From assembly GCF_003334815.1 (NCBI RefSeq), contig NZ_QOWO01000050.1: DNA of 23,190 nt; one strand, 5' to 3'. The notes under the pieces are model-generated. The model was given only the letters and a program-made list of their open reading frames with translations. It did not search any database and had not been told where the DNA came from. Origin of the DNA: Escherichia coli. Lineage in GTDB: Bacteria; Pseudomonadota; Gammaproteobacteria; Enterobacterales; Enterobacteriaceae. Below are positions 5,685 to 16,574 of this stretch, in pieces. A program made the translations under genes and the position numbers. Positions within the stretch are counted from its first letter, which is position 1. Each line of letters starts with the position of its first letter.

Positions 5685-5701
5685 TTGGAAAAATATTCCA
5701 A
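5685..5701. promoter_or_regulatory. Candidate AllR operator in the allS-allA divergent region (TTGGAAAAATATTCCAA)
   Basis: 17-mer inverted repeat centred in the 229-bp divergent intergenic region. It differs at a single position from a second 17-mer at 7235-7251 upstream of gcl. A TTGGAA-type dyad is consistent with what I recall of AllR (IclR family) sites. Confidence 0.6.
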
Positions 5702-5806: not shown

Positions 5807-6289
5807 ATGAAACTTCAGGTATTACCGTTAAGTCAGGAAGCCTTTAGTGCTTATGGCGACGTAATCGAAACGCAGCAACGGGATTTTTTCCATATTAACA
5901 ATGGCCTGGTGGAGCGTTACCACGATTTGGCGCTGGTTGAGATTCTTGAGCAAGACCGTACGCTTATCAGCATTAACCGCGCGCAACCGGCGAATCTGCC
6001 GCTGACCATTCACGAACTCGAACGTCATCCGCTGGGTACTCAGGCCTTTATCCCGATGAAAGGTGAGGTGTTTGTGGTGGTCGTGGCGTTAGGTGACGAC
6101 AAACCAGACCTGTCAACGCTGCGGGCGTTTATCACCAACGGCGAACAGGGAGTGAATTACCATCGTAACGTCTGGCATCACCCACTTTTCGCCTGGCAGC
6201 GCGTCACCGATTTTCTGACCATCGATCGCGGCGGCAGTGACAACTGTGATGTTGAAAGTATTCCTGAACAGGAACTCTGTTTTGCGTGA
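5807..6289 (+). CDS. allA: Ureidoglycolate lyase (ureidoglycolate hydrolase family)
   Basis: 160-aa ORF; sequence and length match AllA; position between allS and allR. Confidence 0.9.
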
Positions 6290-6366
6290 CGCCTGCAACC
6301 GACTTGCATAAGATAAACTAATTGTTCATTGTTTATGCTCACTTGTAGGTCGGAGTTAACGTAGGT

Positions 6367-7182
6367 ATGACGGAAGTTAGACGGCGCGGCAGGCCAGGAC
6401 AGGCGGAGCCTGTGGCACAGAAGGGCGCACAGGCGTTAGAGCGGGGAATTGCGATTCTGCAATATTTGGAAAAAAGTGGGGGAAGTTCGTCGGTTAGCGA
6501 TATTTCTCTCAATCTGGATTTGCCGCTCTCCACGACCTTTCGCTTGCTGAAGGTTTTACAGGCAGCGGATTTTGTCTATCAGGACAGTCAATTAGGCTGG
6601 TGGCATATAGGATTAGGTGTCTTTAACGTCGGTGCGGCGTACATCCATAACCGCGATGTCCTCTCCGTCGCCGGGCCGTTTATGCGCCGCCTGATGTTAC
6701 TTTCCGGCGAAACGGTCAATGTCGCGATCCGTAACGGCAATGAAGCGGTATTAATTGGTCAGTTAGAGTGTAAATCGATGGTCAGGATGTGTGCGCCACT
6801 GGGCAGTCGTCTGCCACTGCATGCTTCCGGTGCGGGCAAAGCGCTGCTTTATCCGCTGGCGGAAGAGGAGTTGATGAGCATCATTCTGCAAACCGGTTTG
6901 CAGCAGTTTACGCCAACTACGCTTGTGGATATGCCCACCTTGCTGAAGGACCTGGAACAAGCGCGTGAACTGGGCTATACCGTAGATAAAGAAGAGCATG
7001 TTGTAGGTCTGAATTGCATAGCTTCAGCAATTTACGATGATGTCGGTAGTGTTGTTGCCGCTATCTCCATCTCCGGGCCTTCATCAAGACTGACAGAAGA
7101 TCGTTTTGTCAGTCAGGGTGAGCTGGTCAGAGACACCGCCCGCGATATCAGCACGGCGTTGGGACTGAAAGCACATCCATAA
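6367..7182 (+). CDS. allR: IclR-family transcriptional repressor of the allantoin/glyoxylate regulon
   Basis: 271-aa ORF with an N-terminal HTH and C-terminal IclR effector domain; matches AllR length and context. Confidence 0.9.
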
Positions 7183-7194
7183 TGTCTGTCGCAT

Positions 7195-7219
7195 CCCGCT
7201 CTGCGGAGCGGGTTTTTTT
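7195..7219 (+). terminator. Rho-independent terminator downstream of allR
   Basis: GC-rich hairpin CCCGCTC-TGCG-GAGCGGG followed by a run of seven T, starting 13 nt after the allR stop. Confidence 0.7.
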
Positions 7220-7234
7220 GACAAAATTTGAAAG

Positions 7235-7251
7235 TTGGAAAAATTTTCCAA
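7235..7251. promoter_or_regulatory. Candidate AllR operator in the gcl promoter (perfect palindrome TTGGAAAA-A-TTTTCCAA)
   Basis: Perfect 8-1-8 palindrome 21 nt upstream of the gcl ATG, near-identical to the 17-mer at 5685-5701. A possible -35 hexamer TTGACA lies at 7218-7223. Confidence 0.6.
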
Positions 7252-7271
7252 TAAATAGAGGTAGGAATAAA

Positions 7272-9053
7272 ATGGCAAAAATGAGAGCCGTTGACGCGGC
7301 AATGTATGTGCTGGAGAAAGAAGGTATCACTACCGCCTTCGGTGTTCCGGGAGCTGCAATCAATCCGTTCTACTCAGCGATGCGTAAGCACGGCGGTATT
7401 CGTCACATTCTGGCGCGTCATGTGGAAGGTGCTTCGCACATGGCGGAAGGTTATACCCGCGCAACGGCAGGGAATATCGGCGTATGTCTGGGGACTTCCG
7501 GTCCTGCGGGCACGGACATGATCACCGCGCTCTATTCCGCTTCTGCTGATTCCATTCCTATTCTGTGCATTACCGGCCAGGCACCGCGCGCCCGTCTGCA
7601 TAAAGAAGATTTTCAGGCCGTAGATATTGAAGCAATTGCTAAACCGGTCAGCAAAATGGCGGTTACAGTTCGTGAAGCGGCGCTGGTGCCTCGCGTGCTG
7701 CAACAGGCATTTCACCTGATGCGTTCTGGTCGTCCGGGTCCGGTACTGGTGGATTTACCGTTCGACGTTCAGGTTGCGGAAATCGAGTTTGATCCTGACA
7801 TGTACGAACCGCTGCCGGTCTACAAACCTGCTGCCAGCCGTATGCAGATCGAAAAAGCTGTAGAAATGTTAATCCAGGCCGAACGTCCGGTGATTGTTGC
7901 CGGGGGCGGGGTAATTAATGCTGACGCAGCTGCACTGTTACAACAGTTTGCTGAACTGACCAGCGTTCCGGTGATCCCAACGCTAATGGGCTGGGGCTGT
8001 ATCCCGGACGATCATGAACTGATGGCCGGGATGGTGGGTCTGCAAACCGCGCATCGTTACGGTAACGCAACGCTGCTGGCGTCTGACATGGTGTTTGGTA
8101 TCGGTAACCGTTTTGCTAACCGTCATACCGGCTCGGTAGAGAAATACACCGAAGGGCGCAAAATCGTTCATATTGATATTGAGCCGACGCAAATTGGTCG
8201 CGTGCTGTGTCCGGATCTCGGTATTGTCTCTGATGCTAAAGCGGCGCTGACACTGCTGGTTGAAGTGGCGCAGGAGATGCAAAAAGCGGGTCGTCTGCCG
8301 TGTCGTAAAGAATGGGTCGCCGACTGCCAGCAGCGTAAACGCACTTTGCTGCGCAAAACCCACTTCGACAACGTGCCGGTGAAACCGCAGCGCGTGTATG
8401 AAGAGATGAACAAAGCCTTTGGTCGCGATGTTTGTTATGTCACCACCATTGGTCTGTCACAAATCGCTGCGGCACAAATGCTGCATGTCTTTAAAGACCG
8501 CCACTGGATCAACTGTGGTCAGGCTGGTCCGTTAGGCTGGACGATTCCGGCTGCGCTAGGGGTTTGTGCCGCTGATCCGAAACGCAATGTGGTGGCGATT
8601 TCTGGCGACTTTGACTTCCAGTTCCTGATTGAAGAGTTAGCTGTTGGCGCGCAGTTCAACATTCCGTACATCCATGTGCTGGTCAACAACGCTTATCTGG
8701 GGCTGATTCGTCAGTCACAACGCGCTTTTGACATGGACTACTGCGTGCAACTCGCTTTCGAGAATATCAACTCCAGTGAAGTGAATGGCTACGGTGTTGA
8801 CCACGTAAAAGTAGCGGAAGGTTTAGGTTGTAAAGCTATTCGGGTCTTCAAACCGGAAGATATTGCGCCAGCCTTTGAACAGGCGAAAGCCTTAATGGCG
8901 CAATATCGGGTACCGGTAGTCGTGGAAGTTATTCTCGAGCGTGTGACCAATATTTCGATGGGCAGCGAACTGGATAACGTCATGGAATTTGAAGATATCG
9001 CCGATAACGCAGCGGACGCACCGACTGAAACCTGCTTCATGCACTATGAATAA
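7272..9053 (+). CDS. gcl: Glyoxylate carboligase (tartronate-semialdehyde synthase), thiamine-diphosphate dependent
   Basis: Track ORF 7182-9053 begins at an upstream alternative start inside the terminator; the real start is ATG at 7272 ([19 protein letters not shown]...) preceded by AGAGGTAGGAAT, giving 593 aa. Confidence 0.92.
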
Positions 9054-16407: not shown

Positions 16408-16539
16408 ATGCGATTTATATCGCATAAGAGTGCAGTACTCATGCCGGATGCGGCATGAGTACCATATCCTTCCTGAAAATCGCGCAAATTCTATATATTG
16501 CAGAGATCATGTAGGCCTGATAAGCGAAGCGCATCAGGC
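16408..16539. repeat. Cluster of REP/BIME-like palindromic units in the glxK-allE convergent intergenic region
   Basis: Three palindromes by eye: ATGCGAT-TTAT-ATCGCAT (about 16408-16425); a perfect 12-bp stem GTACTCATGCCG-GATG-CGGCATGAGTAC (about 16435-16462) containing the REP-like core GCCGGATGCGGC; and GTAGGCCTGATAAGCGAAGCGCATCAGGC (16511-16539), a classical REP consensus in reverse orientation. Confidence 0.6.
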
Positions 16540-16547
16540 AATGTTAC

Positions 16548-16574
16548 AAAAAAAGCCACGGTATAAACCGTGGC
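16548..16574 (-). terminator. Rho-independent terminator for the allE-allC-allD transcript (minus strand)
   Basis: On the minus strand, hairpin GCCACGG-TTTATA-CCGTGGC is followed by seven T (plus strand shows AAAAAAA then the stem). It lies ~45 nt downstream of the allE stop. Confidence 0.6.

Follow-up and report, generated by a model that had tools for sequence, protein, structure and literature searches.

How is one transcription unit closed and the next one opened within a spacer of 89 bp, and can the same bases take part in both? The question is raised by the junction between allR and gcl in a stretch of 23,190 nucleotides of Escherichia coli DNA (the window, in which position 1 is the first letter), where the initial annotation had described a terminator after allR whose T-tract runs directly into a candidate -35 hexamer of gcl. 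The window covers the E. coli allS-allA-allR-gcl-hyi-glxR region and the locus is part of the E. coli chromosome. Over 701 bp around the junction, many E. coli chromosomes show 100% identity, and a match exists in 5,405 of 5,426 complete genomes, where the annotation gives allR, for the HTH-type repressor AllR, and then gcl, for glyoxylate carboligase. In the E. coli genome collection the junction has 5,417 matches, two of which sit on plasmids instead of chromosomes. The gene order around the junction is mnmH, allS (minus strand), allA, allR, gcl, hyi, glxR, allW, allB, and ybbY. The allR coding sequence, encoding an IclR-family repressor, occupies 6367-7182 on the plus strand and ends with a TAA stop codon at 7180-7182, as given by the open reading frame, its translation and the RefSeq annotation of identical E. 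coli chromosomes; that of gcl occupies 7272-9053 on the same strand, with its ATG at 7272 (open reading frame list and annotation of the identical chromosomes). The spacer between them extends from 7183 to 7271.

The two genes are described as separately transcribed: according to reviews of the cluster, allR is monocistronic and gcl-glxK forms an operon apart from it, driven by a promoter of its own, gclp (PMC12535856). In the Cappable-seq data of strain EDL933, allR starts are found at 625,248/625,249 and 625,267, i.e., positions 6320, 6321, and 6339 of the window (PMC10469882, supplementary file 6). The start at 625,267 (6339) is detected in all conditions; it precedes the allR ATG (6367) by 28 nt and agrees with a constitutive expression of the gene. 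At the other end of the gene, an ATG at 7182 overlaps the stop codon (TAATG) and is in frame with gcl, so that a stop-free upstream extension of 30 codons is formed (open reading frame 7182-9053). The same site reads TAGTG in other Escherichia alleles, the ATG is absent in other genera, and it looks accidental.

The allR transcript is ended by a terminator of the intrinsic (Rho-independent) type. Its hairpin, CCCGCTC-TGCG-GAGCGGG, is located at 7195-7212 on the plus strand and consists of a 7-bp stem with six G-C pairs and a 4-nt loop; the T7 tract (U7 in the RNA) follows at 7213-7219 on the same strand. Direct reading places these elements, as well as the TTGACA at 7218-7223, exactly where the initial annotation had put them, and a consensus scan reports the same terminator; 20 kb of sequence contain just one other clear terminator. 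For the hairpin alone, a folding energy of -14.8 kcal/mol (z = -3.25) was obtained, none of 200 shuffled sequences being equally stable, while a wider stretch of 43 nt folds at -18.8 kcal/mol (z = -3.7). In the fold of this wider stretch, UGUC (7183-7186, just after the allR stop codon) pairs with the GACA of the candidate -35 hexamer (7220-7223) and encloses the terminator hairpin; this pairing would require read-through RNA, and other genera do not conserve it. Rfam gave no match at 6000-8000.

Mapped RNA ends agree with this anatomy. The available part of the Term-seq tables (Adams et al., bioRxiv 10.1101/2020.07.18.207399) lists two allR 3′ ends classed as primary, namely NC_000913.3 533,861 (LB 0.4 sheet; 3,571 reads on average) and 533,862 (a later sheet; count of 14,222); both rows carry the context ...GCGGAGCGGGTTTTTTTGACAAAAT. 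The register of the 61-nt contexts was checked on the rows of thrW, aspU, aspV, and sgrS, where the reported position is base 51, and window positions were obtained by subtracting 526,644 from the NC_000913.3 coordinate. The two ends thus correspond to 7217 and 7218 on the plus strand, the fifth and sixth U of the tract, so that the last base of the allR RNA is either the first T of TTGACA or the base preceding it. A G+C-rich 7-bp stem, a 4-nt loop, a U7 tract directly after the stem, a position 12 nt past the stop codon and RNA 3′ ends 5-6 nt into the U-tract are all features shared with canonical E. coli Rho-independent terminators, from which the one studied here differs in its context only, the last two T's being used again at the beginning of a candidate -35 hexamer.

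The terminator is also conserved as a structure. One genome per species was scanned, which yielded 21 further usable allR loci and, with E. coli, a set of 22 spacers anchored on the AllR palindrome, drawn from Escherichia, Superficieibacter, Klebsiella, Raoultella, Citrobacter, Buttiauxella, Izhakiella, Atlantibacter, Providencia, and other Enterobacteriaceae; these sequences are related, and counts taken over them are not independent. At all 21 further loci, gcl follows allR. In 17 taxa the stem is invariant while the loop varies freely, and the remaining five have other stem sequences, e.g., CCCACGC/GCGTGGG in Buttiauxella B2 and CCGTTT/AAACGG in Providencia. Four of these five divergent sequences were folded (B. 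brennerae being left out), and in all four the hairpin ends at the same column; the hairpins of Buttiauxella B2, B. agrestis, and Atlantibacter are stable and that of Providencia is weak (-4.5 kcal/mol). RNAalifold, applied to the ungapped alignment of 22 sequences, returned no consensus structure, the 5′ arms being out of register, and single-sequence folds were therefore used. Five positions of the tract are T in all 22 orthologous spacers. With its canonical anatomy, a hairpin that is kept with different stems and RNA ends at 7217 and 7218, the terminator proposed in the initial annotation is fully supported.

What the overlap with TTGACA means is less straightforward. T7218 and T7219 are common to the terminator tract and to TTGACA (7218-7223, plus strand), a 2-bp overlap with a hexamer that matches the -35 consensus at six of six positions and is invariant in the sampled Escherichia alleles. 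TTGACA occurs six times in the window, where 12 occurrences are expected; that at 7218-7223 is the only one in the spacer, and the remaining five are distributed over the rhs region, allS, allA, and gcl. The sequence TTTTTGACA occurs in 31 of 100 shuffles, the allE terminator (16574-16555) is followed by TTTTTTTGTA, again a T-run and a G, and several rows in the available part of the Term-seq table also show a G after the terminator T-run. The bare motif is within chance: since it is not rare and a T-run followed by G is common, any significance must come from position and conservation, and only these exceed chance. The allE case can be seen as a control. This strong terminator, GCCACGGTTTATACCGTGGC followed by T7 (window 16548-16574, minus strand), is located downstream of allE (ylbA) in the convergent spacer between glxK and allE and adjoins a REP-like element (16512-16540); a TTG follows its tract (TTTTTTTGTA) though no gene comes after it, indicating that a T-run followed by G is nothing special.

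That a gcl promoter is contained in the spacer is indicated by a reporter. In a 2026 study, a chromosomal Pgcl-lux fusion gave low basal, AllR-repressed light and was opened by proteins that titrate AllR (PMC13300388). The gene-specific parts of the primers used for this construct delimit positions 7183-7264 of the window, and as this 82-bp fragment suffices for AllR-repressed expression, the gcl promoter lies inside the spacer. The available parts of the Cappable-seq tables of MG1655 and EDL933 list no start in the spacer, as is expected while AllR represses, and the available parts of the supplements on ROSE in-vitro transcription, MG1655 Cappable-seq and the Urtecho promoter screen hold no entry for gcl or for relevant coordinates. 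Full-text searches with the operator sequence or the term "AllR box" returned irrelevant matches only.

The second fixed point of the spacer is the AllR operator, a palindrome TTGGAAAA-A-TTTTCCAA at 7235-7251 (given without strand), of which 11 of 17 positions are invariant in the 22 taxa. Together with its flanking bases, G-TTGGAAAAATTTTCCAA-T at 7234-7252, it fits the published AllR motif KTTGGAAWAWTWTTCCAAC (PMC8222616). Two palindromes of this type can be found in the window, as compared with 0.09 expected. AllR is known to bind the gcl promoter, and glyoxylate lowers or relieves this binding (PMC11323563; PMC12535856). The sole other copy in the window, the perfect palindrome TTGGAAAAATATTCCAA at 5685-5701, lies in the divergent spacer between allS and allA, where ACAAAAG on the allS-facing side resembles the TTGAAAG flank of the gcl operator; the AAAG next to both operators may provide accessory contact bases for AllR.

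Between hairpin and operator, the spacing does not vary. From the final G of the stem to the palindrome the distance is 22 nt in every case, and from the 3′ arm of the hairpin to the operator there are zero indels in the 22 spacers, whereas on either side the distances drift, with 46-148 nt from stop codon to operator and 12-27 nt from operator to ATG. Within Escherichia, the sampled alleles (K-12-like, EDL933, WEM25, MLI109, and E. whittamii) do not differ from the stop codon up to the first operator half-site, all variation being found in the operator center and the leader. Judged from the aligned spacers, hairpin, T-run, and operator form a rigid module, kept across at least ten genera, and the gcl core promoter would be part of it, so that core promoter, AllR operator and terminator make up one rigid block of about 57 bp (7195-7251).

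Where the promoter would be placed in this block can be argued from the Shine-Dalgarno sequence. In E. coli this is GAGGT at 7258-7262 on the plus strand, 9 nt before the gcl ATG, and a comparable sequence is present in all 22 taxa; in every taxon it starts 2-14 nt past the operator (GAGGT, AAGGAG, AAGGA, or similar). The tightest case is Providencia, in which AGGAG starts 2 nt and the ATG 12 nt past the operator. As the Shine-Dalgarno sequence must be in the transcript, transcription would begin near the operator's 3′ boundary, which would put the -10 hexamer inside the A/T center of the operator; a -35 hexamer 15-18 bp further upstream would then have to overlap the end of the T-tract, which is where TTGACA lies. 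Only the hexamers located 15-18 bp downstream of TTGACA combine an A at position 2 with a T at position 6 and also leave the Shine-Dalgarno sequence in the transcript. Four such -10 candidates can be read at 7239-7247 on the plus strand and were ranked with an approximate weight matrix: AAAAAT (7239-7244, preceded by TGG, spacer of 15 bp), AAAATT (7240-7245, 16 bp), AAATTT (7241-7246, 17 bp), and AATTTT (7242-7247, 18 bp). In all of them the second base is A and the sixth is T, but the matches are two or three of six at spacers of 16-18 bp and four of six plus TG at 15 bp, and the register is ambiguous. A -10 element that is weak and sits within the operator is what the initial annotation had suggested, and its AAATTT at 7241-7246 indeed falls inside the palindrome. 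With 7 nt added to these candidates, the start would be expected at 7251-7254 on the plus strand, upstream of the Shine-Dalgarno sequence, with a leader of 18-21 nt.

Scoring across taxa points in the same direction. A -35 hexamer at the boundary of the T-tract combined with a -10 hexamer in the operator is the best arrangement starting upstream of the ATG in 15 of the 22 taxa, according to a sigma-70 weight matrix with approximate frequencies after published compilations, so that its results are indicative only. In 17 of the 22 spacers the T-run is followed by TTG, with the register as in E. coli or shifted downstream by 1 nt; the other five have TTC or TTA. The six columns after the TTG are nearly random. 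A slip of 1 nt would be the tolerance expected for a -35 element with a spacer of 16-18 bp. Using a strict consensus scan, a promoter composed of TTGACA and one of these -10 hexamers was not called. TTTCCA-17-TAAAAT (7245-7273), the only promoter match of that scan and also the top weight-matrix match, was rejected, as its start would be about 8 nt inside the gcl frame. The gcl promoter proposed in the initial annotation is thus supported indirectly: its presence in the spacer follows from the active 82-bp fragment, and the role of TTGACA as its -35 hexamer is a prediction from the sequence, its position and the conserved spacing.

Taken together, these observations are best accounted for, with a probability of roughly 70%, by a terminator followed by a sigma-70 promoter whose -35 hexamer TTGACA shares T's with the terminator tract and whose -10 hexamer lies in the AllR operator. 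Hairpin and U7 tract end the allR transcript at 7217/7218. The promoter of the gcl-hyi-glxR-...-glxK operon would then use a -35 hexamer that begins with the last two T's of the tract and a weak -10 hexamer in the A5T4 center of the operator, giving a start at about 7251-7254. AllR bound to the palindrome would cover roughly -18 to -2 and block RNA polymerase until it is released by glyoxylate, as has been published for AllR at the gcl promoter. The terminator would keep allR transcription out of gcl, the expression of which would be set by the occupancy of its own promoter by AllR. The insulation of gcl from allR read-through that had been proposed along with the terminator is a reasonable idea, since the literature treats allR and the gcl operon as two transcription units. 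As for the 2-bp overlap, it is best read as a consequence of geometry and not as a special device: a -10 hexamer in the operator for repression, and ahead of the Shine-Dalgarno sequence, places the -35 hexamer at the end of the T-tract, and the T's of the tract supply its TT.

Because the best -10 match of the spacer is TGG-AAAAAT, with four of six positions plus the TG, an extended -10 promoter made of TG at 7236-7237 and AAAAAT at 7239-7244 has to be considered, for which no -35 hexamer would be needed and TTGACA would be incidental, or auxiliary at most, since the spacer would be 15 bp. It is the top usable candidate of the weight matrix in E. coli and its TG is invariant in all taxa, though these bases are also part of an AllR half-site. 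However, most other genera would have a spacer of 14 bp to the -35 position, alleles with an A4T5 operator (EDL933, E. whittamii, and many genera) reduce the hexamer to AAAATT, and the indel-free spacing between terminator and operator would be left unexplained, which makes such a promoter unlikely.

The conserved flanks of the operator suggest another arrangement, with TTGAAA (7228-7233) as -35 hexamer, the 17-bp operator itself as spacer and TAAATA (7252-7257) as -10 hexamer, from which transcription would start near 7264; the T-tract and TTGACA would then be outside the core promoter, the former acting at most as an UP-like element. TTnAAA(G) is fairly well conserved upstream of the operator, the base two positions past it is A in 20 of 22 taxa, and in five taxa (Raoultella, K. 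oxytoca, K. grimontii, Izhakiella australiensis, and Superficieibacter electus) this arrangement scores best. Yet in most taxa transcription would start inside or after the Shine-Dalgarno sequence, and in Providencia, where this is impossible, on the ATG; four of the five Escherichia alleles (EDL933, WEM25, MLI109, and E. whittamii) have T in place of the A at -11; a T at -7 is found in just six of 22 taxa; and the AAAG flank, being found beside the allS-allA operator too, may be an accessory contact of AllR. On the position of the Shine-Dalgarno sequence, the Providencia geometry and the variation among E. coli alleles, this quite improbable pair was rejected.

Finally, transcription of gcl mainly by read-through from the allR promoter or from an internal start at 7048, with the terminator as a partial attenuator and a promoterless spacer, would agree with the available part of the EDL933 Cappable-seq table, where two of eight conditions show a start assigned to gcl within allR (625,976; window 7048) and the spacer has none, but it is hardly credible in view of the AllR-regulated expression driven by the 82-bp spacer fragment alone, the strong terminator with allR 3′ ends in its U-tract, the published status of allR as monocistronic and of gclp as a separate promoter (PMC12535856), and the repression by AllR under which a missing spacer start is expected. 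The start at 7048 (NZ_CP008957.1 625,976; PMC10469882, supplementary file 6) is 134 nt before the allR stop codon, and a weak promoter-like pair, TTGCAT (7014-7019) and GATGAT (7036-7041), can be found ahead of it.

Seen against known systems, a terminator followed by a sigma-70 promoter with its -10 hexamer in the operator would not be exceptional, intrinsic terminator, sigma-70 promoter and IclR-family operator each being textbook members of their classes. The IclR operator at aceBAK also overlaps the core promoter (Pan et al., 1996, as cited in PMC8222616). The core-promoter operators of the IclR family, i.e., that of IclR at aceBAK and those of AllR at gcl and allS-allA, have in common an A/T-rich palindrome with TTGGAA/TTCCAA half-sites, an overlap with the promoter and a repression that is relieved by glyoxylate; regarding the operator itself there is no difference, the locus being the gcl site already described for AllR. 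Back-to-back junctions of terminator and promoter between units transcribed in the same direction occur in compact bacterial and phage genomes. In these too, the downstream promoter lies within a few bases of the upstream terminator and differently regulated units are insulated; what differs here is the 2-bp overlap and the hairpin-operator spacing, which is fixed in at least ten genera. A literature search for earlier descriptions of an overlap between a terminator and a -35 element found nothing specific.

The junction is a compact arrangement of terminator, promoter, and operator built from already known parts, in keeping with the ordinary packing of bacterial genes. The terminator of this locus had been described by genome-wide mapping of 3′ ends; its promoter and operator, as well as the action of AllR at both gcl and allS-allA, were reportedly described by Rintoul et al. 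in 2002, and promoter and operator also figure in later work. The additions made here are small, namely the explicit sharing of 2 bp and the indel-free block across at least ten genera. Beyond annotation, i.e., a strong terminator between the separately transcribed allR and gcl operon, their importance is little. One practical aspect concerns Pgcl as a glyoxylate- or AllR-responsive part, of which the minimal fragment necessarily includes the allR terminator hairpin; in cloning, trimming of the T-tract would cut into the predicted -35 hexamer. It is conceivable, but only as a long shot, that the indel-free module reflects a functional coupling, either a re-initiation of polymerase at gcl or a roadblock by AllR that raises termination. 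If so, polymerase released at 7217/7218 would stay on the DNA and re-initiate at gcl once AllR leaves, or else AllR, bound 17 bp downstream of the release site, would act as a roadblock, the repressor tightening its own insulation.

Two of the sequences encountered deserve mention. In E. coli WEM25 (NZ_CP061530.1, locus L025 of the set), gcl is annotated as a frameshifted pseudogene, and the operator carries a G in its center (TTGGAAAGTTTTTCCAA) together with two further changes in the leader. The assembly CACSKA010000001.1 (L008), titled "Chryseobacterium sp. 18061", encodes an AllR 86% identical to that of E. coli and has a spacer close to that of Citrobacter sp. 18056 (L020); it is probably mislabelled or contaminated.
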